The notes beneath the pieces are model-generated. The model was not told where the DNA came from. It searched no databases and saw only the letters and a program-made list of their open reading frames with translations. The translations under genes and the position numbers were made by a program. A stretch of 30,086 nucleotides of DNA from Paraphysomonas bandaiensis (lineage: Eukaryota; Protista; Chrysophyceae), in the NCBI GenBank assembly GCA_965644295.1, contig CBFFRP010000507.1:1-30086 (forward strand), read 5' to 3'. Below are positions 3,785-24,752 of this stretch, piece by piece (position 1 is the first letter of the stretch; every line of letters begins with the position of its first letter).

Positions 3785-3798
3785 AAGTAAATTTACTT
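3785..3798 (+). promoter_or_regulatory. Palindrome AAGTAAATTTACTT at the primer-binding-site position (A)
   Basis: Perfect 14-nt palindrome directly after the LTR CA; no TGG-type tRNA PBS. Function is inferred. Confidence 0.7.
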
Positions 3799-3883
3799 CC
3801 GAAAGCAGCGAACAAATCTGCAGATTTAGAATTTGCATTAAAAGAACATTCATTATTATAATAATTTAGCATTGAATAACGAC

Positions 3884-5431
3884 ATGGAATCTGCCAACTT
3901 GGAGGATATACTACGAACGATCATGCAACAATTGCAACAGCAACAGCAGGATACGCATGAAATAAGGCAAGACATTCAAGAAATGAAACTGAGTATGCCT
4001 AGAAAACTTGAGCAAGTTGACCAGCGAGTGGATGCGTTGATAGAGGAAAAGCAAAAGAGCGATCAGAAAGTGGAGACTGTGCTGGAAAACATCAATGCCA
4101 GGCTGGAAACTATGGAAACCAGAACTGCTATCCTGGAAGGGGAGAAAGAATTAACGGAGCAGCAGGACAGGGCAATTACCCACCCGAGCGCATCTAGAGA
4201 ACGCAAGACTATTTTCATGAAAGAGGTTGAGGAGACTACACATCTGGCGGAGAGAAGGCAAGTAGTTGTGCAAATGCCTACTCCCTCTCATTCGCATATA
4301 TTCCTAAATTCAATGGACCTGGCGGACTATGCTCAATTTGTGACCAAGTGGTTTGACTGGCAGGTCAAGTATGGGGTGAGACTAGAGCCGGCCCTCATTG
4401 TTTCCCAAAGCATCCGAAATCTACTAATTTTCAATAATGACATGACGGAATCTCAGTTTCAAGAACTCTCACCTGAACAATTTTGCAAGTTGATGGCGAA
4501 AGAAACTCAAGTACTGTCCAAGCTCGAGTTTTCCAACACATTGAGGCATGCCCTAAGAGACATCAAAAGGTTAAACTGGGAAAGAGTTAGACCGAATACT
4601 CACGAGAGGTTCTTCCAAGGCATTCTGAGGCGTAGAGACATATACTTAAGGACCTTCAGGATTATTATGGAGAACAATAGCCAGTATTGCCCAGACCTGG
4701 AAGGCAAAGACTTCGGTTTAGCACAAATATTTCTAAATTTGATTGATGATACTTACAACAAAACTGTCTTGGCCGAAATACCCAAGGTCAAGGCAGGAAA
4801 CTACTCCAAAGTTGAAGAGTTCCTGGAAGCTTATGTTAAGAAGGCTAAGGAGCACTATGACACGTCGAAGCGTATTAGACTGGTGCCATACAGTGGTGAG
4901 GACTATAGCATGAAAAGTCATGACATGCGCAAGAACAAGCCTTACTCTTCACAGGAAGACAAGTACAAAGGACATGAGACAAAAACGTACCCGATGACCA
5001 GTGGGGAAGCTAAGCCTTTGCACCAGATAAATGACTTCAGTGATGATGAAGATCAGGAGCCACGGGAATCCAGAAATGCAGAGCCAGACTCAGATGACGA
5101 CTCTGACTATGAGGAAGACCCAAAGAGCACTGCAGAAGGTCATGACACGAATCAGCGCTACGAGGACAAAGTGGACCACCAGACAGCAAGAGATCAGGAC
5201 ACAGACTACAGAAGGCTACAAGCCATAGAGGCATCTGCTACTGGGTTGGGATGTGTCAATTTCGCCTTGTATGGGAAGTGCTTTCGAGGAGACCAGTGCA
5301 AATATGCTGGAAGTCACAATGAGAAGTGTGCAAAGGACTGCAGACAGTGGATGATGAAGAAGTTGGCGACGATGGAAAGAGATGGTCCGGGACCTCCTAA
5401 GATAATGAAGCGTGATCCAACGAAATCTTGA
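3884..5431 (+). CDS. gag: Gag (family A), N-terminal coiled coil and C-terminal CCCH zinc finger
   Basis: Long ORF between LTR and pol; first ATG at 3884; C-x8-C-x5-C-x5-H at 5252-5317; visibly homologous to the family C gag (e.g. CPDLEGKDFGLAQIF vs CPRIDDKEYGLIRLF). Confidence 0.88.
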   Translation: MESANLEDILRTIMQQLQQQQQDTHEIRQDIQEMKLSMPRKLEQVDQRVDALIEEKQKSDQKVETVLENINARLETMETRTAILEGEKELTEQQDRAITHPSASRERKTIFMKEVEETTHLAERRQVVVQMPTPSHSHIFLNSMDLADYAQFVTKWFDWQVKYGVRLEPALIVSQSIRNLLIFNNDMTESQFQELSPEQFCKLMAKETQVLSKLEFSNTLRHALRDIKRLNWERVRPNTHERFFQGILRRRDIYLRTFRIIMENNSQYCPDLEGKDFGLAQIFLNLIDDTYNKTVLAEIPKVKAGNYSKVEEFLEAYVKKAKEHYDTSKRIRLVPYSGEDYSMKSHDMRKNKPYSSQEDKYKGHETKTYPMTSGEAKPLHQINDFSDDEDQEPRESRNAEPDSDDDSDYEEDPKSTAEGHDTNQRYEDKVDHQTARDQDTDYRRLQAIEASATGLGCVNFALYGKCFRGDQCKYAGSHNEKCAKDCRQWMMKKLATMERDGPGPPKIMKRDPTKS

Positions 5432-8400
5432 CTACTGCAGGGTCTTTCTGGGCCCTCTGTTGTCAGTGAAACAATAAGCTCACACAGCAGGAAGGCTTGC
5501 AGAAAGGCCCTGGAGCGAAGTTTCCTGCAGGCATGCGGCATAGGCAGGAGACTATGGACTGCCGCACACACTAAAGCGAGGATTGAAGTAGTAGATAGAA
5601 AGAATATGGAAATGAGAAGAGACGTAGAGACATCAGTACTGTTCGACACGGGAGCCCTCTGTTCGAACTACATCAGCATAAGGAAGTTTAGAGATATCGA
5701 GAAACACATGCATACTAAGGACATAATACACAAGAGAACAAAAGTCGGATTAGCAGACAATAAGACAGTGGCATGGAGTGACATCATGGTGAGACTTACC
5801 TTGAAGTTCGAGGATCGTGGTTCACCGAGCGCGGTTTCATGCAAATACTCTGGAGAATTTATTGTGTTGGACATGAAAGATAATGAGATCATAATTGGGT
5901 TACCTGCGATACTAGGGGACTTGTGGGACTTCTTTTGCTACAGTCTAAAAGGCAATGCAGAAAGAAAGATTAGAACGAGCGTGCCAGATGCGGAGGAGGA
6001 GATGTTGCAGTTCTTGGCATCCATGGATAACGTAGTGCATCCCTGGTCAAATAGTATGGAGGGAGAGCCACCTGAAGAAGAAATGTCTCCGTTGCCAGTA
6101 CAGTTTGGTGAGGTGATCAAGTTTTTGGGAAAAAGCAGAGAAGAAGCCATTCAGGAATTCAAGGATTTGATGCCCGAGCATATAGCTGAAGATTTTGACA
6201 AAGCAACACCTGTTCGAGAACTGTTACTAAATGAAGGTTTGAAAGTTTTTGTACCAGAGACATGGACTGGTATCAGAGGTGTTGAACCATTAAAACTCAC
6301 CTTCAAAGACACTTTACCTCAGCGACTCAAGCCTAAAGCCAGACCCATAAACCCAAGACTCTGGGAGGCAGCAGAAAAGGAATTTTTGAGACTGCGTGGA
6401 TACATGTACGAGAAGAGTAGATCACCATGGGCGTCTTGCTTGGTTGTTGCTCCCAAGGCTACGAAGCCATTCATCAGGTTCTGTGGTGATTACGTAGAGA
6501 TCAACAGGCATATTCACATCGGTAACTACACTATACCTAATATTAGGCACCAGTTGGATCGTATCATGGGGTACAAGGTATTTTTAGACATAGATCTCAC
6601 AAATGCCTTCCACCAAATCCCATTACATGAAGAGACGGCGGAGAAGCTATCCATTCAAACTCCTTGGGGTCAATATCAACCACGATTCATGCCTGAGGGA
6701 ATAGGTCCTGCTACTGGCGTTTTACAAGAGACTGTCAATGCATTGTTTTCAGACTTACCGTGGGCCATAGTGATATTCGACAACATTTTGCTTCTGGCGA
6801 CGGATTACCAAGAGGCATATGAGAGACTGAAAATCTTCATTGAGAGATGTATACAACACAACGTTATTCTCAAGTTTGCAAAGAGCTGGCTAGGTTTTGG
6901 AGAAGTCAAGTTCTTTGGCTATAGATGTAAGCACCAGAGCTTTGAGTTGACAGAGGATAGAAAGGCTGCATTACTTGAGATACCTTTTCCAGAATCCGGG
7001 AACAGATCCAAGAAAATCAGATCATTATTAGGATGTGGAGTTTTCTTTGCGCCTTTTGTGAAAAATTACAGTGAGAAAGTTAGACATTTGACAGATCTTA
7101 CGAAACCTGAATTCGACTGGACAGATGAGTCAAAGTGGGAGCACGACTATAGACAGGAATTCGAAGATTTCAAGAAGGATTTGCAAGAGGCATGTGCACT
7201 TCATTACCCAGATTACGAGCTGCCATGGGTGATAAGAACTGATGCGAGTGAGATAGGTGTTGGCGGAGTCCTCATTCAAATCAAGACACATGCAGACGGT
7301 TCAAAGGAGGAGCAAATTATAGCGCTGATCTCCAAAAGATTCTCTAAGCAAGCACAGAAGTGGGATACTATTGAGCAGGAGGGATTTGCAATCTACTATG
7401 TGGTCAAGAGACTGGCGTATTATCTAATCGGGAAGGAGTTTTTGTTGGAGACGGATCATAACAACCTGAGATGGATAGAAGCGTCAGAAGTACCCAAGAT
7501 TATACGATGGAGAATTTACCTGCAGTCATTTGTGTTTAAGGTGAGACATATCCCTGGAAAAGAAAATGTACTGGCCGATACACTCTCCAGACTCCATCTA
7601 TGTGTTGCTGAAGAGGACGAGCATGAAGATTGTCATACAGCGGAAGGGCTATGCCACCTGTGTAATGAAGATGACGAATTTGAGGAGGAGGAGTTGGAAT
7701 ATGAACAGCGCATGAGTACCTTATGCAATATGTTTGATGAGGAAGAGGTGCTAGGAGAGGAGATCAAACCCACTCCTAACCATTTGCAGCTCACACCAGC
7801 GGAGTGTTTAGATCAGGTTCACAATGCCCAAGTCGGACACTGGGGAGAGCGCGAGACCTGGAGGAGACTGAACAGGGATTTCCCTGGGCATGGCATATCC
7901 CAGCGACAAGTTAAGGACTATATAGACCGATGCGCAAATTGCCAGAAGTCCAGGAGGGAGATGAAAACTCGGCTGATCCCTGTGCAGAGACACTTGAAAC
8001 CTCCATCACACAGGACCGCAATTGGTATAGATGCATTAGCCATTACACCCCACGGCCGCAATGGAGAGACACACATTAACGTCATTGTGAATTTGTTTAC
8101 GGAGCTAGCGTTTTTGAACCCAGTGAAAGGATGCTCAGCAAAGACCCTGGCGGATTCAGTCTGGAAGTATTGGGCGAATTTCGGTTTTACTGACATGATC
8201 ATATCTGATTTGGGACCAGATTTAAATTCAGCGTTATTCAAGGAATTGACCGATCTGGTGGGAGTTCGGCATGTTTTCAGCATTGCGAACAAACATGTCA
8301 ATGGTTGCGAGCGGGTGAATAAGGAAGTGGGACGACACTTGCGAGCATTGGTATATGACACCAGAGAGAAGGATGTTTTTGACGACCCAACCTTCATCCC

Positions 8401-9412
8401 CAGTGTTCAAATTATTCTTAACACACACAGATCAGCAGAGACAAACTACACTCCATTTGAGCTGACTTTTGGGACACCAGACTCCGTGTATAGTGATCTC
8501 GCGAAGAAATTCGAGCGCGTCCCTGAGCATCTATACCTCCAGAAGATGCACGAGAACCTTCACCAGTTACGCAACGCATCTAGACAATACCAAGAGACTC
8601 TGATCAAGAAGAGAGTGGAGGGTCCTAACCAGAGGATGGGTCCCCAGAACAAATTCCAGAAAGGGGATCTGGTCTTGTACGACCCAGGAGTGAGACCGGT
8701 GCCGAAGCTGTCTACAAAACGCAAGGGACCTTTCGAGGTAGTTCACCAGTACAAGAATGACGTAGACTGCAGAAATGTATTAACAGGGGCTATTCACAAA
8801 TATTCTGTAACTGACCTAGAGTACTTTGTGGGTTCAAAGGAGGATGCCGTGGAAGCTGCCATCCGAGATCAAGAGCAATTCAGAGTCAAGGTGATTCATG
8901 GGTACAAGGGAGATTCCAACCACCGTACTAGCATGACATTCATTGTGGAGTATGCAGATGGGGACATACTGGAAGTACCATGGAGTAGAGATCTATTCGA
9001 TTGTCAGGCATATGAAGATTTCTGTAAATCTAGGAAGTACTTACATCACCTCATCCTGGATCAGAATCAGGTCACTCCTTTCAAGACTCAGCTCAGGAGG
9101 GCAGACGTCACAGCAGTGCAAGTAGGTGATAGAGTGTATGTGGATCTTCGTTTCTTTGGGGATCAGTGGTATCAGAGCTTGGACCTTCCAGACTTTTCTA
9201 CAAAATCGTATGTGGTGGTCTTCGAATATACACATTGGTACCACAGGACATCTAAAAAGAAGATTAGTGCTCGTTTTCTGCTTAATGGTGCTACTTACGC
9301 CCTCGATAATTATCTTGTGTTTGCGTGGGGCTCCGTCAAGACCTTCGATGAGACCTACATGGTGCTCGTGGATGCAGACATCGCCAAGAGGTATCCCCGC
9401 ATTGTTGAATAG
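5432..9412 (+). CDS. pol: Pol (family A): protease, RT, RNase H, integrase, chromodomain-like, extra C-terminal domain; in frame with gag
   Basis: LFDTGA protease; RFCGDY, DIDLTNAFHQ, MPEG, IFDN (RT); TDAS, EQE, TDH, ADTLSR (RNase H); HHCC, D..D..E, GPF (integrase). The frame is open from the gag TGA onward. Confidence 0.95.
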   Translation, partial: LLQGLSGPSVVSETISSHSRKACRKALERSFLQACGIGRRLWTAAHTKARIEVVDRKNMEMRRDVETSVLFDTGALCSNYISIRKFRDIEKHMHTKDIIHKRTKVGLADNKTVAWSDIMVRLTLKFEDRGSPSAVSCKYSGEFIVLDMKDNEIIIGLPAILGDLWDFFCYSLKGNAERKIRTSVPDAEEEMLQFLASMDNVVHPWSNSMEGEPPEEEMSPLPVQFGEVIKFLGKSREEAIQEFKDLMPEHIAEDFDKATPVRELLLNEGLKVFVPETWTGIRGVEPLKLTFKDTLPQRLKPKARPINPRLWEAAEKEFLRLRGYMYEKSRSPWASCLVVAPKATKPFIRFCGDYVEINRHIHIGNYTIPNIRHQLDRIMGYKVFLDIDLTNAFHQIPLHEETAEKLSIQTPWGQYQPRFMPEGIGPATGVLQETVNALFSDLPWAIVIFDNILLLATDYQEAYERLKIFIERCIQHNVILKFAKSWLGFGEVKFFGYRCKHQSFELTEDRKAALLEIPFPESGNRSKKIRSLLGCGVFFAPFVKNYSEKVRHLTDLTKPEFDWTDESKWEHDYRQEFEDFKKDLQEACALHYPDYELPWVIRTDASEIGVGGVLIQIKTHADGSKEEQIIALISKRFSKQAQKWDTIEQEGFAIYYVVKRLAYYLIGKEFLLETDHNNLRWIEASEVPKIIRWRIYLQSFVFKVRHIPGKENVLADTLSRLHLCVAEEDEHEDCHTAEGLCHLCNEDDEFEEEELEYEQRMSTLCNMFDEEEVLGEEIKPTPNHLQLTPAECLDQVHNAQVGHWGERETWRRLNRDFPGHGISQRQVKDYIDRCANCQKSRREMKTRLIPVQRHLKPPSHRTAIGIDALAITPHGRNGETHINVIVNLFTELAFLNPVKGCSAKTLADSVWKYWANFGFTDMIISDLGPDLNSALFKELTDLVGVRHVFSIANKHVNGCERVNKEVGRHLRALVYDTREKDVFDDPTFIPSVQIILNTHRSAETNYTPFELTFGTPDSVYSDLAKKFERVPEHLYLQKMHENLHQLRNASRQYQETLIKKRVEGPNQRMGPQNKFQKGDLVLYDPGVRPVPKLSTKRKGPFEVVHQYKNDVDCRNVLTGAIHKYSVTDLEYFVGSKEDAVEAAIRDQEQFRVKVIHGYKGDSNHRTSMTFIVEYADGDILEVPWSRDLFDCQAYEDFCKSRKYLHHLILDQNQVTPFKTQLRRADVTAVQVGDRVYVDLRFFGDQWYQSLDLPDFSTKSYVVVFEYTHWYHRTSKKKISARFLLNGATYALDNYLVFAWGSVKTFDETYMVLVDADIAKRYPRIVE

Positions 9413-9418
9413 CATAAC

Positions 9419-9436: not shown

Positions 9437-9439
9437 CAG

Positions 9440-10268
9440 TGTAACGCCGAGGCGTCAAACTAATCACATACCACAAAAGACCAGTGAGGTTAATATGCTA
9501 CAAGGGGGGCTCTAGTGGATTGTGTGTGTATGTACAGCCTGCATCTTATCTTCGGATGAAGACACACTTCACTCTCGGATTACAAGTGCCGCTGTTTTTG
9601 CTGTATGGGCAATGGAGAGATCTGATTGGTGTACTCGGGTTATACTGTTTTGTATACTGTATGGAATACAGGCTGTATTGTCTATATGTATATGCTGTAT
9701 AACGGTGCTGGAATACGGACTGTACTTGGTGGTGATGTGTTTGCAGAGTGTGTTGTGTGACACGAGGTACATAAGTACGCAATGATGCAGTTATAGGTAC
9801 ATGTAGGGACTATCATTATACAGCTGCTGTATTATGTATTACTGCTGAACGCTGATTGGCTAGTCACTGCATTTTTGGTCTGTGGCTGTTGAGTTGGTTT
9901 AAGGCTCTTCTTATAGGCCTCTACGTGAATCTTCCAGAAGGTGAATATCTCCACAAAATTGGCGAAATGTTGCTGAATTTTCTGCAGAATATTGTTCTTT
10001 GTTCTCTGCTGTGTTTCTAGATAGTTCATAGAATGTAAATGGTTCTGTATGAGTTGTTTGTGTTCTATGTGCTGTCATTATTATGTTACTAGCCTTGCCT
10101 ATTAACACGTTTGAGGAGGTGTCTTCAAATAAGTGCTTGAGGGTGCTCAGGCAGTTGCAGGGCATAGTAATAAGCATATTTATCTCTACATTAGCTATTT
10201 TCTTGTTACATTCGCACATTCATTTCATATACATAGCTGCACCCGGTGTGATACCCCGGGTTTGGTCA
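9440..10268 (+). repeat. Family A 3' LTR
   Basis: Direct repeat of 2956-3784; abuts the broken copia RT. Confidence 0.92.
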
Positions 10269-12902
10269 AACTGGAGCAAACGTGGACTGCTCCTCCTCCG
10301 TTTTTTCTTGTAGATTCCCTAATGCAGTCAGCCGCGCCTTATACTTGACTACATTCACCAGAAGGTCTCTCTTCACCGTGTGAACATACTTTGCCCGCAC
10401 CAACTTCACTCCCCGTGGAGTCCGCACAATCTTTAAGACACGTCTCTTCAGTAGTGAGGTCTTCTCCACCTTCCGAGCTTCTCGCCACTTCATGTACTGT
10501 GGAGATCTCTCCGCTTCAGCATATGATTCTGGTATCTTAAAGTCATCATGTTTCAACTCTGCATGTTTCAAGTTAACAGTGTATGCATCTGGCACCTCAA
10601 CCATATTTATTTCTCCTAATACTGATGCGTTCGCCAACCTACGCTGTAGCCGTTTCCGCCGTACACGACCATCACCATCTAGTTCAATAGGTCGTCTAGT
10701 AGATATATACGAACCCATACCTTGCTCATCCTGAGCCCGCAAATCTTGCGGTGTGGGAGGAGCCCCGCTCGCATCCCCAGACCCACGGTCTGTCGAGGTC
10801 TGCAACCTCACGACTGTCTGTTGACAGGTTGGGTCAGGACTCTCCTGGAACCCTCCAGGTCTTCCCTGGTCCAGCTCCCTGGCTGGCGTAGTACTCAGGG
10901 CGTCCCCCTTTCCTATGTACCCGGTATTCCCGGGGGTTTCTGCAGTCATACGCACTACGTCTTGGACGTGTATAGGCACCCGGTGCTCTATATGCTCACG
11001 ACCTGCAGTAACAAGTGAACGGTATGCTACAATCACACCCTTACGTTCTACAATCAACTCTTGTTGTCTTATACAGAAGTCCGTCCTCATCATCAATATG
11101 ATACGTTCCTTCTAAGCTGGCATAGTCGGATGCAAGCTTGGGTCTAGCGGCCTCCCGCACTCGAAGAGCATCAATCTCTGCAAAATACTTCTCTGATCGT
11201 GATGGCGTTGATTCATCAGTCAATATATGGACTGTAGTCACCACCTTGTTTGATTCAGGAAGATATACATGGTATCCTACCTTCTTCTCATCAGAGTAAC
11301 CCATTAAATATCCAACTAGAGCCTTATCCTCCCAGTCCTTTTGTCGATCTGCCTTCGGTGAAAGAACATAAGTTCGACACCCCCATACCCTAAGATATCT
11401 CAAATTTGGAGGCTCACCCGTTAGAAACTCTATAGGAGACATATACCCTTTATCTGTTTTCGTTGGCAATCGAATCAAAATATATCTGGCTGCCATGTAT
11501 GCATCCAGCCAAAATTGTGGTGGCAGTCCAGATTGGATTAACATTGCAAGGGTCATCTCTCCAGCAGTTCTGAACTTCCTTTCCTCTATGGCATTCATCT
11601 CCGGAGAGTCTGTTGAGCTCCATGTATGTTTATAGCACTCCTGTGACCTAAGATACTGACGCAGCTCCTGTGACCTAAGATACTGACGCAGCTCTTCACT
11701 GATTAATTCTCCTGCACCATCTGCATGGTAATGCTCCATCTTGAGCTTGTACCTTTTAACATCTCCTCTAAACAGCTCTTTGAAGACTTCTAATACCGCT
11801 TCCCCAGTTCTGTTGACTAGACCCGTCGCCCAGAACATTTTGCTTGCATGATGCGTTATTTTCAACACATACCTCTCTCCTCCTCTAGCAGGACAATTTA
11901 AAAACACAGCTATATCTGCTGAAAAATTCGGTCTAACGGAATTCTCGTCCTTCGTTCGGAAGCTGACTCGGGTTATTTTAGACCTGGCACACACATCACA
12001 CAAACACTGATTTTTGTGTACCTTGGCAGTAAGGTGTTTTCGTTTCAACCCCGTGCCCATGATGAGCATCCTCTTATGTGCCTCCACTAAGACATGTTTG
12101 TTGAAGTGACCTGCTCTCCGATGCAGCAATTCCAGCTCGTCCTCACCAGTCCTATCATCTTCATCAGAGAAATCTGCTGGTTCTCCACGCCGTATATTCT
12201 CTACTGTTAGAAGCTTTTTATCTGGTTTCCTTCGATTCTTCGCTATCTCTCCTCTTCGTTTCCTCGCCGTTGGAAAGTCAGAGGCAAGATGCTCCATGGA
12301 CTTGCAATTCCTACATCCTGTATACTCTGCACTTCCAGGACGCTGACCAGTTATATCTCCATCCTTCTTCCTCTGCTTCCTCCTGCACTGTTCAGTTGAA
12401 TGGCTATGAGGAATTCCTTCTTTTTCCTGCAATATCTACAATTGCCCTTCTTACGCTTATCCCGTTCTGTTCGAGACCGTTTGCTCTTTTCAATGAAATT
12501 CAGCTCCTCCACCTTCTTGCGTTTCCGCTCTAACGCAATCCTTCCAGGAATGGTATCATCATACCGTTCTATCTTCCTTGATAATGTTGCATAATCAACA
12601 TCATCCGGCATCAAGTACAAAGCAACATTCAAAGGAGCATATTCTTCATTCAACAGACCTTCTCGTAACCGTGTTATATTTGAGAGCTCCGATATGTCCT
12701 GCTGCTGCTCCTGTAGCTCTTTCAGCAGTATTTCAAACCGTATTATATAGTCCTTCGCAGTCTCCTCCGGACGCATACGGAAAGAGCCATACTGAGTCAA
12801 CAGCTCACTGATCTTGTTTTGCTTCCCTCCAGCAAAGCACTTCTTCAACTCATCAATCATAATATGCGCCTTAAACCTGTTGCTTCCTCTTCCATCAGCA
12901 CA
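10269..12902 (-). pseudogene. Truncated Ty1/copia gag-pol (partial gag, zinc knuckles, GAG-pre-integrase, integrase, start of RT)
   Basis: ORFs 12351-12860, 11041-12432 and 10266-11096 join through frameshifts: FRMRPEETAKDYIIRF (gag), CRNCKSMEH, LLHRRAGH..CDVC, HADGAGE..PEMNAIEER, LRVWGC, PESYAEA..KYKARLTALG..STFAPV. Cut by LTR A; no LTR and no recognisable protease. Confidence 0.9.
11638..11694. repeat. 27-bp tandem duplication inside the copia integrase
   Basis: ctcctgtgacctaagatactgacgcag x2, duplicating ELRQYLRSQ in frame. Confidence 0.9.
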
Positions 12903-12953: not shown

Positions 12954-13160
12954 AGCTTTGTCATTATATCTATCGTCGTGGCGATATTCACTGCTCCTAT
13001 TAACCTGCTGTGAGTACTTAATAATTATAATGTCGTCGTTGTGTGACTGTTACTTGTTTTAGCGTTGATTTCTTATTTATCGAAGTTCTATCGGCACCAA
13101 CAGCGAATGCTTTGAATGTGCGATCCGCAGATGAAACTGTGTTGAGAAACGCAATTCGCA
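12954..13160 (+). pseudogene. Two host exons with a 53-nt GT-AG intron (13010-13062), hydrophobic membrane segment
   Basis: Acceptor tctcttcaacag ends at 12953; donor gtgagt at 13010; acceptor ttgttttag ends at 13062. The spliced frame reads SFVIISIVVAIFTAPINLLVDFLFIEVLSAPTANAL and stops at ~13177. Confidence 0.6.
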
Positions 13161-14127
13161 TTGGTAACGAAATTTAAGTTTGCAGCCTCTGAATGGAGTG
13201 ACGACGACATCCCATTATCTTATGAATTTGCCTATATAGAGACACACATTAGTAAAGTTGTTCACGGGCGATCAGAGTATTCCTTTGCAACGTCATTGCT
13301 TCCTCCAGGTAGACCGAATGATGACTTATTGCTGTGTCAAGTGCGAGTGTTTGATGTGCTCAATGCATATAGCTCTGAATCAGTGTCGTTAATAGTTAAC
13401 GACCCCCAGATGACATCGTCGGCTCTATTGCGCACGATGGGGCATCTGATAAGCTCCAGTGATGGTAATATTGATGCTCAGAAGGAGACTTTATCTGTTG
13501 TGAGTTCCGTGCTGAACCGTAGGAATTGCTCCAGTGCTCCTCGGTGCTCAAATTTTAATCGAAATGGCTGCAGTGCTGTTGCAAATACTTGCGGGAATTG
13601 CTTACTGGGATATTTCGGTACTGATGGTGACGATAATTCAATGTGCCACCACCTGAGCAGTCTTGCTGTTTTTGTACCATCAAGGTTACCTTCTTTGTGT
13701 ATGTCCGACTTCGACTGTGCCCCATGGGAATTTTGCTACGAAAATTCGATGAATGGGTTTCCGGTGTGCAATATAAAGCTGAAGGAATGTAAGGGTGGGT
13801 GTTCTGGTCACGGCATCTGCTTTTTTAGAGATCGCAATACCAGGTTAGAAATAAATGCATGCTTTATGAGCGACTATACTTGTGAGGCTGTTTGCATATG
13901 CGAAAGCGGGTTTACAGGGAGTAATTGTGGCATGCACTACGAAGATTTTCTTGTTAAGCGGAATATTCGCAGTCAACTTGCATTCCTTTTGTACAATATT
14001 TCAAGGGTTGATGATGATTCAGCGGATAATATTGCATCGTGGGAATCATCATTGTCTTCAATCACCCAAAACGTCCAAGAAATTTCTGTAGACATGGCTC
14101 GTGTAACGCTGAGTGTGGTGTCCTCTA
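13161..14127 (+). pseudogene. Host gene fragment: REJ/PKD-like segment plus Cys-rich EGF-like repeats, cut by LTR B
   Basis: TKFKFAASEWSDDDIPLSYEFAY resembles REJ-domain motifs; CSGHGIC...CICESGFTGSNC is EGF-like. No ATG start; the stop comes from the LTR. Confidence 0.65.
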
Positions 14128-14814: not shown

Positions 14815-17800
14815 TTACAAGAGTATATCAGGAAATCTCTTGCAAAACTCCGCATCGACCAACACCATAATAGAAGAGTCAAATGTAGTAACTCGACCGT
14901 AGCAATGAACGTCATAGGCACTCCATTCATATGTAGACCGAAACAAAGGGCAATATAGATCAATACGCAATTTACGACGACCCGCCCACCGTACATAGTT
15001 ACACTCCACAACATAAATAGTCGTATAACAATTCGGTAAGTCTAGTGTATCATAAAAATCGGCACCCCAAGCACGCAAATCTACATAAATAGTTTGACCA
15101 GGAGACACTCCCTCAATAGGAATACGTTTCATACGAGTACGTTCAGCTTTAGCCATGGTAGCAGTAAATAGTAACGGAAAAAGATATGGTCGTTGTTCAC
15201 AGTATAATTGGAAATGTGAAGTAGAGGAAATATCTAGGGACCATGGTATCCACAACAAAGAACCATCCTCAAACTGTACTTGAAAATCCATTGTAGTACG
15301 CACTTCAGGATCTCCTCTATGAGCAACGATAGAACGCACTGTATGTTGGTTGAAATCAATTTGGGCTACACGATATGCATCTTCAAGTGTTCCAAAAAAC
15401 GGTTTAAGCCATGACATGTGCAATACCACTTCAAAACGCATGACAATATGAACACATGTAACATCAGCTTTATAAGTTGACACCACTTCATAAGGTCCCT
15501 TAAAACGAGGATATAACTTCGTAGGCTTGTGGCGCTTTGGATTTAATTGGAATAATACAAGTTGGCCCGGTTGATATTGGGTTAAGCTCTCAACTGGCGT
15601 CTTAGATTTACGCTTGTTTTGTATCTTACGCTGAACCTCATTTGCAATTTCACGAATCGTCTCAAGATGTTCATTAAACTTGGCAATATACTCCATAGCG
15701 CTACTCACATTAACATTATCCGTTAATTTAAAGTATGGCATAGCAGCAGTACCAAATGTAAACTCAAATGGCGACAAACCAGTCTCACTGCTAACTTCAT
15801 CATTAAGAATGAACTGAATCAGTAAGTAACATTCTGGATCTCCCCATACATCCTGTAAACGTTCATCATGCACCAATGCACTTAGAAACCTTAGCGTCTC
15901 TTGATGAGTTCTCTCAACCATATTTGATTCATGTCGATCTACTAAAGACATTCGAAAACGCACACCAAACCATTTCAAAAGCAATTGTACAACCTCTGCT
16001 GTAATATTAGATCCAGGATCTGATATCATAACTTCTGATATTCCATATGTAACAAAATAACTGAACAATGCACGTGCGACTCCAACCGCTTTGTAATCCT
16101 TAGCTGGATAAAGACCGATTAAACGAGAAGGCATCTGTTTGACAACATGTATGCAGCAATGTCCATACTTGTCCGGCGGTGAAACTGTAAGCGTATCAAA
16201 ACCTACAAATTGACGACAATGCTCTGAGTCAAGTGCTCTAATCGGCGCTTGTAATGAAGTACTCATACCCGCATTCAGTTTCTGGCATATTGGACAACGA
16301 TCAATCAAATCTTGAATAACTTCCGTAGTTATTGTATGTCCAGGAAATACTTTAGACAATTTCAACCATGTCCTCTTAGTACCATGATGCCCCATACGAC
16401 CGTTATGAACCAAATCAAACGCTTCCTTAACTGATTTAGGCCGTAAATTTTGACTCGCTAGTTCTTCCAGAGCTGCTATGATCTCTGAAGAAAATACAGC
16501 ACAACATGCTATATCATCTGATTCAGAACTCCATTCTCCTATACAATTTAATTCAATCAGTTGATCCTCCGGTAGCAAATCTGTATTCTCAAATATAACA
16601 ATTTCCCCATATATTAGACTCTCCTCAGGAAAACAGTCTATACTTATGGACAACAACATAACATGAGCCACAGCCGATTCCTGATCTTTACGAGATAACC
16701 AATCAGCAAATCTGTTTAACTTTCCCTTGAAATGAAGCAAGTCGAAATTGAAATTCTGTATAAACATCCGCATGCGTACTATTCTGTCAACAACCGAAAC
16801 TTCCATCCATTTAAGATTGGCGTGATCCGTCATGATCGTGAACTTTTTACCTCTCAAATAATACGACAAAGCATATACACAAAAGAATATTCCAAAACAC
16901 TCCTTGTCAATAGTGGACCACTTCAATGTTGGTTCCGAAAATTTCTTCGACACCATTGCAATTACTTGATAGAATTCTTGACCATTGGCGTCAATAAAAA
17001 TTTGTAACAACACACCTCCACATGCATAAAACGAAGCATCTGTCATCAAGATCCATCTTAAAGAGTAGTCGGGATGATACAGAGTAAGAGATTTTAAAAT
17101 CGCCTCTTTAAATCTACTAAATTCCTCCCTGTAATTTACTTTCCAACAGTTTTCATTCCAGTCAAAATTCTTCTTCGTCATGTCATGTAACTTATGAGTA
17201 AGGTCACTATATAACGGAATAAAAGGTTTAAAATATATTGCCGCTCCAAGAAATCTCTGCATTTGTTTCGTCTTGTTTTTCCCTTCTGGAAATTCAATTG
17301 CAGTTACTGATAATTTTCGGGCCTCAGTTAATTGGTAAGTGTTGTCCTTACAAAGATAGCCGAAAAATTCCACTGATGAATAGCCAAATTTGCTTTTCGA
17401 CAATTTCAACACGACGTTATAATAAGTACATTTTTTAATAACTTTCTTGAACTTCTCAATAGCATCCTGATAGTCATGCGCTAACACCAGTAAGTTGTCA
17501 AATATCACTACCATCCACTCTGAGAATTCATTGAAAATATCAGACACTACATGCATCAAAACTCCACTTGCCGGAGAAACTCCCTCTGGCATAAACTTTG
17601 GTTCGAACTGGCCCCATGGAGTTTGAACTGACAACAGTGCTGAAACTGATTCATGAAGTCTAATCCCATGGAAAGCATTACAAATATCCAAATCAATGAA
17701 CACCTTATACCCAGCTGCTTTATGTAATTCTTTTATAACATCTGGTATGGGATAATGCGGACTTTCAATCTCTAAATTAACACGCCTGTAATCACCACAT

Positions 17801-18777
17801 ATTCGAATAAAAGGTTTCGTAGCCTTGGGTGCTACTACAATTGGAGATGCATAAGGACTCGTACTGGGACGATAAAAGTATCCGCACATCCTATTGAACT
17901 CCTCCTTCGTACGTTCATATAACATAGGTGGTATCCTTCTCATATTCTTGGGTTTAATTCTATCAGGAATAGTACTTTTCACCTTTAATTTTAACTCAGG
18001 AACATGCTGAATTCCAGTCCACTCTCTAGGAACAAAAACATCAACTGCATCCTCTCTCAAAACTCTCAATATATCAGTTTGTTGAGCGAAATCAGGATGT
18101 ACTTTTGATTCTAGTTCACTAAAATATTTCTCCCTAGCCTCATTCACTGACTGTTCCAAAAAAGTCACTAAACTTCCAAAACTACATGGTTCAGGAATCA
18201 TATCATCTTCCTCTGACTGTTCTGGAATTGGATTCTCCCATGGATTACAGACTGGTCCTGACGACATATATCTCCTAAGTTCGTCAATGTCATCCCCAAT
18301 ATTGGCAAGAACTTCTATTTCACTTAAATTAACAGATTGTTCAACACTCAGTGATGCTTTCTTAATCATATTCATAAATAGTTCGGAAAAATGCTCACAG
18401 ATTGCCGGTAATCCTATAATAATGTCCTTTGCCAAACCGTCCAAAACATACAGTGAAAGTTGTGCTTTGTAGGTCTTACCATCATCTTCGAAAGCAATTG
18501 TAACAGGAATATACCCTTGTAGTTCAATCTGATGTCCGTCTGCTACTTTGACCCTCAATTTTTTATGTACCATATCCTTTAACAATTTGTCCCCACACTT
18601 CTTAACAAAATTTGATGAAATAAAATTATCCGAAGATGATCCGGAATCAAATAAAACCATTTCCACATTAATCTTATCACCACAGTTATTTATTATCATT
18701 CCTTGCCTATGTACAGCATTACGAAATCTGCTGGAAGTATCATTGTAATTTCGCATAGCTGCTATCACTGATTGTGC
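14815..18777 (-). CDS. pol: Pol (family B): protease, RT, RNase H, integrase, chromodomain-like, extra C-terminal domain; in frame with gag
   Basis: LFDSGS; RICGDY, DLDICNAFHG, MPEG, IFDN; TDAS, TDH, ADWLSR; HNGRMGH..CPIC, D..D..E, GPY. Confidence 0.95.
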   Translation of the reverse strand, partial: AQSVIAAMRNYNDTSSRFRNAVHRQGMIINNCGDKINVEMVLFDSGSSSDNFISSNFVKKCGDKLLKDMVHKKLRVKVADGHQIELQGYIPVTIAFEDDGKTYKAQLSLYVLDGLAKDIIIGLPAICEHFSELFMNMIKKASLSVEQSVNLSEIEVLANIGDDIDELRRYMSSGPVCNPWENPIPEQSEEDDMIPEPCSFGSLVTFLEQSVNEAREKYFSELESKVHPDFAQQTDILRVLREDAVDVFVPREWTGIQHVPELKLKVKSTIPDRIKPKNMRRIPPMLYERTKEEFNRMCGYFYRPSTSPYASPIVVAPKATKPFIRICGDYRRVNLEIESPHYPIPDVIKELHKAAGYKVFIDLDICNAFHGIRLHESVSALLSVQTPWGQFEPKFMPEGVSPASGVLMHVVSDIFNEFSEWMVVIFDNLLVLAHDYQDAIEKFKKVIKKCTYYNVVLKLSKSKFGYSSVEFFGYLCKDNTYQLTEARKLSVTAIEFPEGKNKTKQMQRFLGAAIYFKPFIPLYSDLTHKLHDMTKKNFDWNENCWKVNYREEFSRFKEAILKSLTLYHPDYSLRWILMTDASFYACGGVLLQIFIDANGQEFYQVIAMVSKKFSEPTLKWSTIDKECFGIFFCVYALSYYLRGKKFTIMTDHANLKWMEVSVVDRIVRMRMFIQNFNFDLLHFKGKLNRFADWLSRKDQESAVAHVMLLSISIDCFPEESLIYGEIVIFENTDLLPEDQLIELNCIGEWSSESDDIACCAVFSSEIIAALEELASQNLRPKSVKEAFDLVHNGRMGHHGTKRTWLKLSKVFPGHTITTEVIQDLIDRCPICQKLNAGMSTSLQAPIRALDSEHCRQFVGFDTLTVSPPDKYGHCCIHVVKQMPSRLIGLYPAKDYKAVGVARALFSYFVTYGISEVMISDPGSNITAEVVQLLLKWFGVRFRMSLVDRHESNMVERTHQETLRFLSALVHDERLQDVWGDPECYLLIQFILNDEVSSETGLSPFEFTFGTAAMPYFKLTDNVNVSSAMEYIAKFNEHLETIREIANEVQRKIQNKRKSKTPVESLTQYQPGQLVLFQLNPKRHKPTKLYPRFKGPYEVVSTYKADVTCVHIVMRFEVVLHMSWLKPFFGTLEDAYRVAQIDFNQHTVRSIVAHRGDPEVRTTMDFQVQFEDGSLLWIPWSLDISSTSHFQLYCEQRPYLFPLLFTATMAKAERTRMKRIPIEGVSPGQTIYVDLRAWGADFYDTLDLPNCYTTIYVVECNYVRWAGRRKLRIDLYCPLFRSTYEWSAYDVHCYGRVTTFDSSIMVLVDAEFCKRFPDILL

Positions 18778-20400
18778 TCAAAGGTCATCCAAAGGATTGT
18801 CATCTCCTTGTTGATCCTCTTCAATATCAAGTTGATCTCTGGTAAGGATACGTACATCTCCAGGACGCTTAACATCACCTGGATTCCTTTTTAATTGCCC
18901 TGGGTTACCACCAAAACGGCGTTGAGGAGGCGTTGTTAGACTTGGCCTTGGCATTACCACCATACCCATTTTCGTGTTCATGACTTTCAAAGCATCAATG
19001 AGAATAGCCTTATCATGAGAAAATTTACATGATTTGTCTTTGCAACCTCCCTCTTGCATCATTTCTCTAAAACATGGAGCAGATTTCTGTGCTTCAACAG
19101 TTGCCAGCAAATCCTCTTCATGTTTTAGTACGCATAACTCATCATCAATAATTTCCTCCTCGTCACAATACTCATTTACGTCATCAACATGTTTGAGTTC
19201 CTTAACTTTCTTATTATCCTTATCACTCGAAAACTTAAATCGACTCTTAAACTGATTATACTTCTCATGTAATTCTCGAGTAATTTTCCAGATTTTAAAA
19301 AACTCAGACAAAAACAGTTGCACAGAAGTAAAGTTTTCTGTCCTCAAAAGTCTTCTGAAAGTATCACGCATGCAATAAGGAATCAAACTAAACCATTCAG
19401 CTAAAGAACCACCTCTCTTAGTTGTAATCAGAGGAATACTATCTCTCAGGTCATTCTGCTTGGCTGCTTCCTCTAGAAACTCATACCTCTGTAAGAACTT
19501 AGTTTCCAGAATACAAAGATCCTCGTCAACCTTACGAAAATTCTCCAACTTTTCCATTGAGACTTTATACGACTCACATGACGAAGCTAACATTTTGTTG
19601 AATTGCATCACATCAAATGGCCTAAAATGACGTCTTGCTGCCGCAATAAGATCCGTAATACTGGCATCATTACATTCAATCTGACTAGGATACACATTGG
19701 GTTTAATTTCCTTAAGAGTATGCCTAATCAACTCCTTAGCCCTTCCATCCAACAACGCATAAACTGATGGTATAGGTCTATTACGATTCATTTTCTCAAA
19801 CTCCGCAATTTTCTCCAAAAACACCAAGAAACCATCAAGAGTAATTACTGACAGCTTTATACCATACTTCTTTGGATCCTTTTCTGCTGCTACTGTAACC
19901 TCACTTGAACCGTTTCTCTCAATTTCCTGTAAAGCTTCTTGCAATGTAAGACGCTGATGTGTACCCACTGGCCGCTCATCTTCTGATTTAAGAGCCAATG
20001 TCGCATTCATAACACCTTCACGCACAGCATTCTCAATACGTGTCTGCAACAAATCAGGGTCTATATACTGCTGCTCACGCTGTTCAATTGCTGTAACTAC
20101 AGGCTCTAGTCCAACAACTTCATTACCATTTGATTTCGACTCTTCGAATGGTATTTCTGAGAACTGATCAGCTTGTACGATTTCTGAATTTGCTCTCGAT
20201 GACCTTCCAGACCTCCTCTGTCGAAGCTCCTCGAGACTCTGTTGAACATACTGATTGAACACCTGTTGCTCGTGATAACGTTGCTCATTACGTTGTTCAC
20301 GTTGCTCATTACGTTGTTCTATATTATCCAAACGCTGAAACAGTTGCTGGATATACAGTGGAATCCGCTCCTCCTCAGCTCCATCATCTGTTCCCTCCAT
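18778..20400 (-). CDS. gag: Gag (family B) with CCCH zinc finger
   Basis: Position upstream of pol; first ATG at 20400; C-x9-C-x4-C-x3-H at 19074-19015; EQRN repeats in an N-terminal coiled coil. Confidence 0.87.
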   Translation of the reverse strand: MEGTDDGAEEERIPLYIQQLFQRLDNIEQRNEQREQRNEQRYHEQQVFNQYVQQSLEELRQRRSGRSSRANSEIVQADQFSEIPFEESKSNGNEVVGLEPVVTAIEQREQQYIDPDLLQTRIENAVREGVMNATLALKSEDERPVGTHQRLTLQEALQEIERNGSSEVTVAAEKDPKKYGIKLSVITLDGFLVFLEKIAEFEKMNRNRPIPSVYALLDGRAKELIRHTLKEIKPNVYPSQIECNDASITDLIAAARRHFRPFDVMQFNKMLASSCESYKVSMEKLENFRKVDEDLCILETKFLQRYEFLEEAAKQNDLRDSIPLITTKRGGSLAEWFSLIPYCMRDTFRRLLRTENFTSVQLFLSEFFKIWKITRELHEKYNQFKSRFKFSSDKDNKKVKELKHVDDVNEYCDEEEIIDDELCVLKHEEDLLATVEAQKSAPCFREMMQEGGCKDKSCKFSHDKAILIDALKVMNTKMGMVVMPRPSLTTPPQRRFGGNPGQLKRNPGDVKRPGDVRILTRDQLDIEEDQQGDDNPLDDL

Positions 20401-20457
20401 AACACTCAAAATGAATTAAACTCAACAATATTCAATGTTTACTGTTCTTCTACTCAG

Positions 20458-20469
20458 AGTAATATTACT
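20458..20469 (-). promoter_or_regulatory. Palindrome AGTAATATTACT at the primer-binding-site position (B)
   Basis: Perfect 12-nt palindrome overlapping the last LTR base; an identical copy lies at 2421-2432 in B'. Function is inferred. Confidence 0.7.
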
Positions 20470-20924
20470 GTGATGTTTCTGAGAACTAGAAACACGTGAA
20501 AGACAAAAAGCTCTTACTAAAAACGTTTTAACAGATTTAGAGTGCACGCCAGCGGGCTGCTACACTGTTAAGTCTACCAGCGGGTAGAACTCCTCCACAC
20601 AAACGCAAACCGCGAATGAGCTTAATTGAATCGTTATTAAAACGTTATATAGAAAAGAATGAGTAACACAGCTATACATCTCTACAGTGTAACACACACA
20701 TACACATACATCATGTTCAGCATTTCACTTCAACACACAACACACCCGATTAGAAGTATTTTATCCGGTATGCATGTACAGCTTCAACACTCTGAGAGTA
20801 GAAACTGAAAATAAAACTGAAAACTGAAAATACTAACACACTCTGTACGTGTTAGAGAGTACAACAGAAGAGTAACATATCATACTACTAATAACGCAGT
20901 ATAAGTAACCAGTACTGCGTGACA
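20469..20924 (-). repeat. Family B 5' LTR
   Basis: Direct repeat of 14128-14583. Confidence 0.95.
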
Positions 20925-21638
20925 CTTCGGTCGATGTGAAACCTGCTGCAAATTTATATCAAAGTTATGTGGGCCCGTATTCCTGTATAGCAGTTGCAGT
21001 ATATACTTCCATATACATACATACATGTATTACCCATACTACCCTATAGGGGGGCAAGTACATGTGACCATCATAAGAGGGAAGTCGCTATTGTTCACTT
21101 GAGGTGCACGAGTGTTTATGCAAGGCTTATTGGGGTTCGATTGCAAATGTGGTGTGCGTACTATACGTACTATACGTACTGTATTTATGTATTTCCTGGA
21201 TTATGGGGTTTTCGGTCTCTGGTAGGGTATAGATACGTAGTATACGGTGTACTCTCGGCATATGCTGGTGAGTCACTCCCTATCAGGTTGCTGTGTATTT
21301 TTCAGTTTTGATTGAAGAGTTACGCAACCTGTGGTGGTGTGATGACACCACGTGTGTTGTACCATGTTAGGAGTGTGTGTGTGCATATATGCTTCTATGG
21401 TGTTTATCACTTGTTTTAAGTTAGACCAAAGCTTGGTGCTAGTGATCTTGGGTGCCGGCGGTATACCATTGCGCGGTGGCTCTTTGCGGGAGTCACTAAC
21501 TAAGTTTAGGTCTAGACTTAGAAAAGTGTTTTAATAATAATACCGTTATTACTGTTCTTTGTTGGTTCAGTGTAGGTGTTATTGTAGTTTTATTGTTTAC
21601 GAGCCAACACCCTGGTTATCAAACCGGGTGTTGTTATA
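20925..21638 (+). repeat. Family C LTR, 5'-truncated (solo or 3' LTR)
   Basis: Aligns to 24024-24739 with scattered substitutions and small indels; ends GTTGTTATA; not followed by the palindrome. Confidence 0.9.
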
Positions 21639-21800
21639 TAGAAGAGAATGAACAAAAGAATAACAAAGAGAAGCTTAAACAAATGAAGGCTGTAGAACTA
21701 GATGATGATGATATAGATGATTTAATGAAAATGATATAAAATATATTGAATAATAAAAATGGTTAAAAAAATAAAAATATATTATATATATATATAATAT

Positions 21801-22043
21801 ATGAGTATGAAATATAGAGTTGTTCAAATTGATGGAGACAATAATTTAATCAAAGAATATAAAACATTGAAAGAAGTTGCAAAAGACTTAGATATAGAGT
21901 TACACTTAGTAAGAAAGAATAACAAGATAACTGAAGGACGAATGGAAAGTAAGAGACCTCATCACATATACAGAGACTTTTTTAATAATACTAAAATATA
22001 CAACATAAAGAAGGAAGTTAAAAAAATACAATCTAAAAATTAG
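21801..22043 (+). CDS. Small NUMOD1/IENR1-like helix-turn-helix DNA-binding protein
   Basis: VVQIDGDNNLIKEYKTLKEVAKDLDI resembles the NUMOD1 pattern; ATG start with the shared upstream motif. Confidence 0.6.
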   Translation: MSMKYRVVQIDGDNNLIKEYKTLKEVAKDLDIELHLVRKNNKITEGRMESKRPHHIYRDFFNNTKIYNIKKEVKKIQSKN

Positions 22044-22106
22044 ATGACAAAATATACAAAATAAATAAAAAGGTTTAAAAATATATAATGTATATATATA
22101 TATTAT

Positions 22107-22445
22107 ATGAGTAAGAATTTTGATACAAAGAAAATTGAAAAGAAGAATAAGAAAGGATTCGTATTACAATCAACGACACAATTTACACCAAAAAAGAATC
22201 AAAAGATAAGTATAGATGAAATAAACAAGTTCTACAAGGCAATAGCGAAGAAGTATAAGAAAAATAACTTTATAATTCGTGCTATGGGTATAGATGGTAT
22301 GAAGACGTTAAAATCACAGGATTTTATAGAAGACGATTTAAAATGGATGATGATTAATTATTATCGTTCATATGGTATTGAAGCTAAGACAGTTGAAGAA
22401 AAATTCAGTGATTATTTTTATTTTGAAATTACAATATTATATTAA
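22107..22445 (+). CDS. Hypothetical basic protein, 112 aa
   Basis: Open frame in very AT-rich DNA, ATG with the shared upstream motif; no family recognised. Confidence 0.6.
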   Translation: MSKNFDTKKIEKKNKKGFVLQSTTQFTPKKNQKISIDEINKFYKAIAKKYKKNNFIIRAMGIDGMKTLKSQDFIEDDLKWMMINYYRSYGIEAKTVEEKFSDYFYFEITILY

Positions 22446-22516
22446 AATATATAAAATATATAAAATATATAAAATAAATAAAATGGTTTAAAATATAAAA
22501 TGTACATGTATTATAT

Positions 22517-23733
22517 ATGAGTAAGAACTATAAAGTATATTACTATTATTATGATATGAATGAAGCTGTATATATGACTGATGAAGATGACGAAGTAAGA
22601 AGATGTGATTTACAAGAGATATTTCACGAAAAGAGTCATCAGTTTAGTATGTTACAAGGATATGATAACACAGAGTCAGACTTGAAAAGGTTTAAAAAAG
22701 ATTTTAATATATTGTGTGATGCATTAAAGAAAGTTTCAATCAAAACAAAGAGTAGTAAGTATTTTTCAATCAAGTATAAGAAGTATTTCAATCATAATGA
22801 CGCCGTATTATACAATTGGAAGGCATACCACAAGGCAGAGACATTAAAGAAGTTTGAGAGAGTATCAAAGACAGAATTTTACATAATGGAGCGTTGTTAC
22901 AATTCAGGATTGATAACATTAAACTTAGATTACAAAGAAAAACCCGTGATGTGTTATAGTAGAGACTTTAGTAGTTATTATAGCAATCTCTTAATCAATA
23001 TAAAGATACCATATAGAGAAGGTAAAGTATATAATTTAGATAGTGTTGAATATGGAAAATTGAAATATGGAATATATAGAGTTGAAATAAACTATACAAA
23101 CAATCAATTCACAAACGTATTTAACTTTTCACAAGATAATCATTATACCTCAACATTATTAAACTCAGTGTATAAATATAAAGATTACTTCGGCTTAACA
23201 TTCAAATTACTGAAAGTAGATGATGAATATGACTATAACGCTTTAATATGGGACTATGATGACTTAATGGATGGTGATAAACTATTCGGTGAATGGTTGA
23301 AAGATATGTTAAGTGTCAAAGAGAAGTTACCAAAGAACAAGTTAGTAAAACATCTCATCTCAACAATAGGAGGAACACTGGCAAGCTTTAAGAACTTATA
23401 TTTTGATGACTTTGATGACTTAGACTTAACAAGAATAAACAGCACTGTTGATAGTGAATACAAACTAAGGAAGATTACAAACTCAGGAACATATAAATGT
23501 GTGAAAAGCGATGAAGCTTATAAGTATAACTTTGCAAGGATAAAGCCGTTTCTAGTGTCATTAGGAAGGAAGAAGATGTTTGAATTAGTAATGAAAAACA
23601 ACTTAATCGACAAATTAGTAGCAATTCACACAGACAGATTAACATTAATTGAGGACTTTAATTTTTCAATAAAGAATAAGTATTATCCAACTCCAGAAGA
23701 GAAATCAAGTGGAAAAATAATATTTTATAATGC
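22517..23733 (+). CDS. Divergent family B DNA polymerase-like protein, C-terminus interrupted by LTR C
   Basis: Motifs in PolB order: RDFSSYYSNLL (A-like), KHLISTIGGTL (B-like), IHTDRL (C-like). The ORF continues to 23791 only through LTR sequence. Confidence 0.65.
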
Positions 23734-24739
23734 TGTGACCACGTGGCATTTCCCATGCCCTATCTACGTGGCTATAGTATCACGCTATTGAGTCACATGC
23801 ATGGTTACATTGACTTTTAGGACCCTATGTTGGTTTAAGACCCTATATCAGGACCCTATATATTGCTTTAGGACCTTCATTGTGTTCAGGATACATATTA
23901 TGCAACACCATTTGGACATTGGTAATGTACCACAGTGTACCTACATATTGAGCCAACGTTCGGGTATGATGTCCAATTTTTATCTGCTGCTGATGATGTA
24001 CGACTATGATCTGCTGCTGGTGACTTCGGTCGATGTGAAACCTGCTGCAAATTTATATCAAAGTTATGTGGGCCCGTATTCCTGTGTAGCAGTTGCAGTA
24101 TATACTTCCATATACATACATACATGTATTACCCGTACTACCCTATAGGGGGGCAAATACATGTGACCATCACAGGAGAGAAGTCGCTATTATACACTTG
24201 AGGTGCACGAGTGTTCATGCAAGGCTTATTGGGGTTGGATTGCAATGTGGTATGCGTACTATACGTACTATATGTACCGTATTTATGTATTTCCTGGATT
24301 ATGGGGTTTTCAGTCTCTGGTAGGGTATAGATACGTAGTATACGGTGTACTCTCGGCATATGCTGGTGAGTCACTCCCTATCAGGTTGCTGTGTATTTTT
24401 CAGTTTTGATTGAAGAGTTACACAACCTGTGGTGGTGTGATGACACCACGTGTGTTGTACCATGTTAGGAGTGTGTGTGTGTGCATATATGCTTCTATGG
24501 TGTTTATCACTTGTTTTAAGTTAGACCAAAGCTTGGTGCTAGTGATCTTGGGTGCCAGCGGTATACCATTGCGCGGTGACTCTTCGCGGGAGTCACTAAC
24601 TGAGTTTAGGTCTAAACTTGGAAAAAAGTGTTTTAATAATAATACCGTTATTACTGTGCTTGTTGGTTCAGTGTAGGTGTTGTTGTAGTTTTATTGTTTA
24701 CGAGCCAACACCCTGGTTATCAAACCGGGTGTTGTTATA
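23734..24739 (+). repeat. Family C 5' LTR (~1006 bp, TG...TA)
   Basis: The right end is defined by the repeat with 20925-21638. The left end is inferred from TGTGAC at the compositional break. Confidence 0.8.
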
Positions 24740-24752
24740 GTAAATATTTACT
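24739..24752 (+). promoter_or_regulatory. Palindrome AGTAAATATTTACT at the primer-binding-site position (C)
   Basis: Perfect 14-nt palindrome overlapping the last LTR base. Function is inferred. Confidence 0.7.

Follow-up and report, generated by a model that had tools for sequence, protein, structure and literature searches.

We analyzed a 30,086-nucleotide (nt) stretch of Paraphysomonas bandaiensis DNA (contig CBFFRP010000507.1 of assembly GCA_965644295.1, positions 1 to 30,086; hereafter the window). It is a nest of eukaryotic long terminal repeat (LTR) retrotransposons, including three gypsy families, A, B and C, with long gag and pol frames; public sequencing runs containing element A are mostly marine. 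An initial annotation had proposed that a perfect palindrome replaces the tRNA primer-binding site (PBS) at four gypsy 5' ends in the window and that two genomic RNAs, paired through it, could start reverse transcription. As judged from its position and its pattern of change among relatives, the palindrome is real, occurs throughout the clade to which these elements belong and is selected for self-complementarity between two strands.

Palindromes mark the 5' LTR ends of three gypsy families

Element A lies on the forward strand. Its 5' LTR (831 bp, TGTAAC...GTCAAA, 2956–3786) is followed by a gag frame with a weak CCCH zinc-finger match (3884–5431), a pol frame for protease (PR), reverse transcriptase (RT), RNase H (RH) and integrase (IN) (5432–9412), and a 3' LTR (9440–10270) with six mismatches to the 5' copy. 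Element B occupies the reverse strand, with a 5' LTR (TGTCAC...CATCACA, 20469–20924), gag (18778–20400), pol (14815–18777) and a 3' LTR of 456 bp that is identical to the 5' one (14128–14583). Both have a polypurine tract ahead of the 3' LTR. Element C, on the forward strand, comprises a 5' LTR (23734–24739), gag (25280–27088) and a pol frame that leaves the window at its edge (27089–30086). The end of its LTR is demonstrated, and the start is deduced from TGTGACC, the start motif of the relatives L003 and L005 (surveyed loci are given as L numbers). A second C-family LTR copy on the same strand (20925–21638) has had its 5' side cut away by B. Target-site duplications were found for neither A nor B, both of which have rearranged flanks, and the 3' end of C lies beyond the window. 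In the case of A, the duplication is probably missing because another A-family copy abuts its 5' LTR: a remnant of the pol end with its polypurine tract (2880–2955, forward strand), which public contigs continue into pol, is likely to represent a tandem or recombined copy. Next to this remnant, on the reverse strand, lies B', a relative of B (81% over 2403–2870), in which a 5'-truncated LTR (2432–2879) and a palindrome are followed by some 150 nt of leader but no gag.

All four palindromes were confirmed, at 3785–3798 in A, 20458–20469 in B, 2421–2432 in B' and 24739–24752 in C, those of B and B' being on the reverse strand. A carries the 12-nt core AGTAAATTTACT (3786–3797), which a flanking pair extends to 14 nt; B and B' share AGTAATATTACT, and C has the 14-nt AGTAAATATTTACT. 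The placement directly behind the LTR stood as a position but required a correction, in that the common core begins at the last LTR base, an A, which in B' as well is the first base of the palindrome. Similarly, each of the four 5' ends is indeed palindromic, but because B' is the truncated 5' end of a B relative, the window contains three independent families and not four. The LTRs end in AA in A and in TA in C, instead of CA. As the initial annotation had observed, the palindrome is absent behind the other LTR copies: those of A (ending at 10270), B (ending at 14128, reverse strand) and C (ending at 21638) match through the terminal A and then diverge.

The window is rich in palindromes, with 17 of at least 12 nt versus 8.7 expected and 8 of at least 14 nt versus 2.2 expected. 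A single palindrome therefore means little, and it is the position that carries the argument. At about 3e-4 per centre, we estimate a chance of order 1e-9 for the palindromes of three families to fall no more than a few bases from the LTR end. The LTR boundary was set in three ways, none of which uses the palindrome: by a second LTR copy (A, B, C and L021), by perfect 7-bp terminal inverted repeats, TGTAGCG...CGCTACA (L020, L023, L024 and L026), and by public contigs with other insertion flanks, which diverge at 24737–24741 for C and at 3787 and 3790 for A. No variant is listed within the palindromes in these public contigs, which is uninformative at the observed variant density. Two RNA contigs, X16 and X17, leave the leader directly behind the A palindrome uncovered, which carries no information either.

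Three further features were seen around these sites. A and C have a second palindrome 11–17 nt beyond the first (3814–3827 and 24764–24777, respectively). The subgroup of L011 and L020–L026 shares a conserved TCTAGCTAGA together with a stem that encloses the palindromic site. Finally, one DNA contig omits 301 nt (3801–4103 of the window) right after the A palindrome, possibly as a deleted derivative that retains the site.

The elements form a Ty3/gypsy clade with a variant RT motif

Protein comparisons place the elements in a Ty3/gypsy clade with the RT motif xFDN in place of YxDD. A profile of 34 pol proteins matched Ty3 Gag-Pol best (E 3.6e-95), and the Ty3 structures 7q5b and 4ol8 are the closest solved RT and integrase. 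Ty3 itself carries the motif YLDD and is primed by tRNAiMet on a bipartite PBS. The elements share with it the domain order PR-RT-RH-IN, but differ in their xFDN motif and in a gag stop codon that is in frame with pol. A, B and C all have IFDN; xFDN occurs in 91 of the 120 protein matches listed (the remaining 29 were not parsed by the pattern) and in 74 of 87 loci (11 not parsed, 2 with other matches). We consider xFDN a variant rather than the sign of a dead RT, because the D214N mutant of Ty3 is reported to keep polymerase activity, with lower processivity (PMC5371799).

The gag frame ends with an in-frame TGA in A (5429–5431), B (18778–18780) and C (27086–27088). Among 18 gag/pol junctions in loci with a single in-frame stop, 14 have TGA, often as TGA-CT, and 4 have TAG, while many other relatives carry gag and pol in one fused frame. 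The arrangement suggests that the gag stop is read through. At the pol C terminus of A (8550–9412), the integrase is followed by a segment that by eye looks chromo-like and by a further region of about 130 residues; these are present in B too and have no Pfam match, and a single-sequence model of the pol C terminus (pLDDT 34.5) was too poor for a fold search. Chromoviruses carry a chromodomain at this place, but among the 25 of 29 Pfam families listed for the 34 pol proteins (E 0.5), there is no Chromo family.

The palindrome is present in all relatives examined

Relatives with non-palindromic sites would speak against the proposal. With an E value of 1e-40 or better, a pol search matched 699 proteins, 120 of them listed, and the locus scans covered 80 of 129 confirmed metagenome loci, 8 genome loci and 1 weak viral locus that was not used. 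A pol match was present at 87 loci, from which we kept the 45 that have a closed gag frame and sequence above it; 24 were dropped for a gag frame open at the contig start, 10 because gag was not found and 8 for lack of a pol N terminus. Within 400 nt above gag, 42 of the 45 loci carry a palindrome of at least 12 nt, as compared to 5.75 expected from dinucleotide shuffles, and 23 carry one of at least 14 nt (1.7 expected). The three misses proved to be palindromic as well: L028 has a 14-mer (its start had been miscalled), L077 a 10-mer, and L043 the common 12-mer, which circular permutation of the contig has placed at its far end. Thus, all 45 loci have the palindrome. With L028, L062 and L043 added by hand, the collection comprises 49 sites, or 47 without duplicates; L033/L034, L007/L035 and L045/L046 are near-duplicate loci.

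The clade elements L082–L088 lie on contigs binned into bacterial metagenome-assembled genomes, probably as eukaryotic contamination.

No other primer site was found

We found no substitute primer site around the palindromes. None of the 49 sites has TGG within the first 8 nt after the 5' LTR end, in agreement with the view that the palindrome replaces a tRNA PBS; seven sites have TGG at the last palindrome base, followed by variable sequence. The 30 nt downstream of the palindrome hold no conserved sequence (top letter at most 0.53), and ARAGORN and Rfam gave no tRNA or Rfam match in the window. Conceivably, tRNA fragments or small RNAs of the host could act as various primers across the clade. 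Half-tRNA priming does exist, and primer types switch within lineages (PMC6317226, PMC10886601), although among plant elements half-tRNA priming is described as limited to copia (PMC6317226). Such priming would, however, require a matching host RNA for each of 15 perfect palindromic cores, in addition to being at odds with the missing TGG, and we regard it as very unlikely. A single fixed external primer, which the initial annotation had doubted, is excluded by the symmetry kept through compensated changes across these 15 cores.

The element's own transcript was the second candidate. In Tf1-type self-priming, the 5' end of the transcript pairs with the primer site, and the initial annotation had named such a partner within the element as a finding that would contradict its proposal. 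Scanning up to 1000 nt (716 nt for the LTR of C), we found a Watson-Crick complement of at least 9 nt in none of the 34 upstream regions of at least 300 nt, and the mean best complement was 5.7 nt versus 6.1 nt in shuffles. The complement could have been missed if it were rich in G-U pairs, bipartite or outside the scanned region. Matches of 11–12 nt do appear in a few LTRs (B', L015, L026, L029 and L060) when G-U pairs are permitted, and the self-primer Tj1 likewise has a gag stop codon (PMC4600332). The G-U matches are scattered in position, though, and come without a shuffle control, and pairing of this type would leave the symmetry unexplained. A hidden Tf1-type partner thus has little probability. 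A downstream complement of at least 7 nt within 80 nt, as in the fungal GalEa elements discussed below, was not conserved either (3 of 45 sites).

Compensated changes point to a duplex between two RNAs

The cores are 10, 12 or 14 nt long and fall into 15 distinct versions. On an RT tree of 47 rows, which omits L074 because its RT match is too short and B' because it has no pol, we counted about 23 core changes, all of them two-sided, in line with the earlier claim that symmetry is retained despite sequence change. From the outside to the centre, the mirror pairs of the 39 twelve-mers changed 0, 8, 2, 0, 7 and 9 times (2/11 eight times, 3/10 twice, 5/8 seven times, 6/7 nine times), with positions 1 and 4 hardly varying. 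Across 33 distinct rows, all core pairs are Watson-Crick, and neither a one-sided change nor a G-U state occurs, whereas the next two mirror pairs outside the core are unpaired in 17 and 25 of the 33 rows. A hairpin could not contain the innermost pairs 5/8 and 6/7, and compensation at these pairs therefore points to pairing between two strands. Consistent with this, predicted folding of 42 sites gave −4.4 to −15.5 kcal/mol for the core dimer as compared to 0 to −0.9 kcal/mol for the hairpin. Symmetry also extends outward from 15 of 17 cores made of AU pairs only, but from 7 of 30 other cores, as if duplex strength were being kept. An intermolecular RNA duplex, as the initial annotation had proposed, is thus well supported by these comparisons and predictions, which favor it over a hairpin.

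A related mechanism would operate in cis, with the RNA being cut behind the palindrome and its end folding back to prime on its own U5 (the unique 5' region of the LTR). Snap-back of this kind would use the same position, would fit the same absence of other primers, and could form a stem from the outer four pairs. Against it stand the marginal hairpin energy and the 16 two-sided changes that fall where the loop would be, at the two inner pairs. Moreover, the body of the cut RNA would be left without a site for the second strand transfer, so that an uncut partner would be needed anyway. In light of these data, we consider priming in cis improbable.

The symmetry could also act at the DNA level, either as a cruciform or by binding a dimeric protein, be it integrase or a host factor. 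Strict Watson-Crick symmetry without G-U states is typical of symmetry in double-stranded DNA, and the nearly fixed positions 1 and 4 would also fit such a role. A spacer-type protein site, however, should have no need of a symmetric centre that changes freely and of lengths of 10, 12 and 14 nt, and the elements would again be left without a primer site. A role in DNA therefore seems improbable to us as well.

Dimer self-priming as a candidate mechanism

The position and symmetry of the site can be combined in one model, to which we assign about even chances: two genomic RNAs pair at the palindrome that replaces the PBS, and one of them, once cut, primes minus-strand DNA on the U5 of its partner. 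In this scheme, the two RNAs would pair through the palindrome, and one of the strands would be cleaved close to the duplex 3' end, by analogy with Tf1, for which the RNase H of the RT is said, in the title of one study, to cleave an RNA duplex. The 5' fragment of the cut RNA would then be the primer for minus-strand DNA on the partner's U5. Each pair would sacrifice one RNA as primer and keep the other as template. RNase H would presumably remove the U5-R part (R, repeat region) of the primer fragment, which could otherwise fold back on the new DNA, and the later cycle would follow the standard scheme, with the cut RNA standing in for the tRNA. If plus-strand DNA were to include a copy of the primer, one replication cycle would suffice to mirror a single mutation, and such copying would explain both the two-sided changes and the 2-nt length steps without intermediates.

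The main rival, which we hold to be possible but distinctly less probable, is that the palindrome is a dimerization or packaging signal only, akin to the retroviral dimer-initiation site (DIS) or the PAL sequences of Ty1, and that priming occurs otherwise, for instance de novo at the U5 edge or by some other RNA. All signs of an intermolecular duplex fit such a signal equally well. Furthermore, palindromes have been proposed to mediate Ty1 dimers (PMC4974528). An exact start at the last LTR base in 49 of 49 sites, however, is not required of a dimer signal. In addition, the retroviral DIS is described as lying in a loop and as adding to a PBS (PMC5445492); in the present elements, we found no primer site besides the palindrome. 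On balance, priming by the paired RNA is the best single explanation, although we would not put it above an even chance.

Several observations weigh against this explanation. First, at 22 of 47 sites the symmetry continues into U5 for 1–4 bases. The duplex edge is thus not in a fixed register, which suits a dimer signal, to which the extension carries no cost, as well as a primer. The proposal that the cut falls exactly at the 3' edge of the duplex, leaving an end at the U5 boundary, therefore needs adjustment, since such a cut would lie at varying distances from the LTR end. Second, the sites were picked as perfect palindromes, and full pairing of the core is therefore given by construction; the presence of a palindrome in all 45 loci, its start at the LTR end and its sequence variation are not. 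Third, the changes were counted on a quick RT tree in which 19 of 43 inner branches are well supported, and the link between weak cores and outward extension comprises only 3 independent supported pairs (p 0.25). Fourth, the cut, by analogy with Tf1, and the use of the cut RNA as primer are inferred, the public runs consisting of contigs. A U5 stem-loop beside the PBS is a mark of the Tf1/Sushi group; here, U5 hairpins are visible at many sites, but with a mean z of −1.42 they are hardly stronger than a control stretch (−1.08). Finally, Ty1 and Ty3 are reported not to inherit the PBS from the primer (PMC5371799), so that copying becomes a less convincing source of the symmetry, and Ty3 RT is capable of de novo priming in vitro (PMC10415136), in line with the main rival.

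Relation to known priming systems

The closest precedent, which the initial annotation had overlooked in its account of known systems, comes from fungal Ty1/copia elements of the GalEa type (Donnart et al., 2017; PMC5445492). These lack a PBS and carry instead the Conserved Hairpin Site CHSeq1, a short sequence directly after the 5' LTR that, as in the xFDN clade, is palindromic once the final A of the LTR is counted, and two main versions of CHSeq1 differ at mirror positions (PMC5445492). The GalEa site is a 10-nt site in copia elements, as opposed to 10–14 nt in a gypsy clade, and its downstream complement CHSeq2, which forms a hairpin within 12–41 nt (PMC5445492), is lacking in the xFDN clade. 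The GalEa authors suggested CHSeq1 as a PBS substitute, compared it with Tf1 and the DIS, and stated that no described model fits; the available portion of their article contains no proposal of dimer priming (PMC5445492). A palindrome in place of the PBS has thus been published for copia, with its mechanism unexplained, and the GalEa variant listing may already show some compensation. Dimer self-priming in trans may have arisen separately in these fungal elements.

The Tf1 duplex, at 11 nt, is similar in size to the palindrome. Tf1, Tf2 and Tj1, as well as the wider Tf1-Sushi-Tcn1 group, are likewise gypsy-type elements that dispense with tRNA and cut the primer from their own RNA (PMC4600332, PMC6317226). 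They differ in that the primer is the transcript 5' end paired in cis with a non-palindromic PBS (PMC5445492), and in the LTR complement, which is absent here. With the retroviral DIS and Ty1 PAL, the clade has in common a short 5'-leader palindrome capable of pairing two genomic RNAs (PMC4974528, PMC5445492); there it is additional to a tRNA PBS, whereas here it occupies the PBS position. The biv-TRIM elements of bivalves also lack a canonical PBS and have inverted repeats or palindromes in their inner domain, but they are non-autonomous, and their authors left position and mechanism unfixed (PMC6934838). In the literature covered, which consisted mostly of open articles, we found neither a palindromic PBS in gypsy elements nor dimer priming, and PMC10886601 does not mention a palindrome.

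Three primer types have been described for LTR retrotransposons and are all in use among plant elements, namely a whole tRNA, a half tRNA or the 5' end of the transcript itself (PMC6317226). A palindromic site that is shared throughout a clade and has undergone many compensated changes points to an additional route. It is an evenly balanced question whether dimer self-priming in trans is this fourth way to start LTR reverse transcription, used by the whole xFDN gypsy clade in aquatic microbial eukaryotes. If so, genome dimerization and priming would be joined in one step and the element would be freed from the host tRNA. The hitherto unexplained GalEa site becomes directly testable, and elements annotated as lacking a PBS would be given a simple rule. 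Because the gag and pol frames of A and B are uninterrupted and their LTRs near-identical, the RT should be amenable to in vitro assays with short leader RNAs.

Neighboring sequences in the window

The remaining window is occupied by other mobile and host sequences. Two broken copia elements lie at 1–2274 and 10266–12902, with matches to RVT_2, SH3 and gag. A host REJ-domain gene with cysteine-rich repeats (13146–14132) is truncated by the 3' LTR of B. The C LTR apparently interrupts an AT-rich island (21640–23733, GC 0.25–0.35) with repeated A-rich motifs and an open reading frame of 424 residues, which has no Pfam or PHROG match and which, by eye, we take to resemble part of a B-family DNA polymerase.

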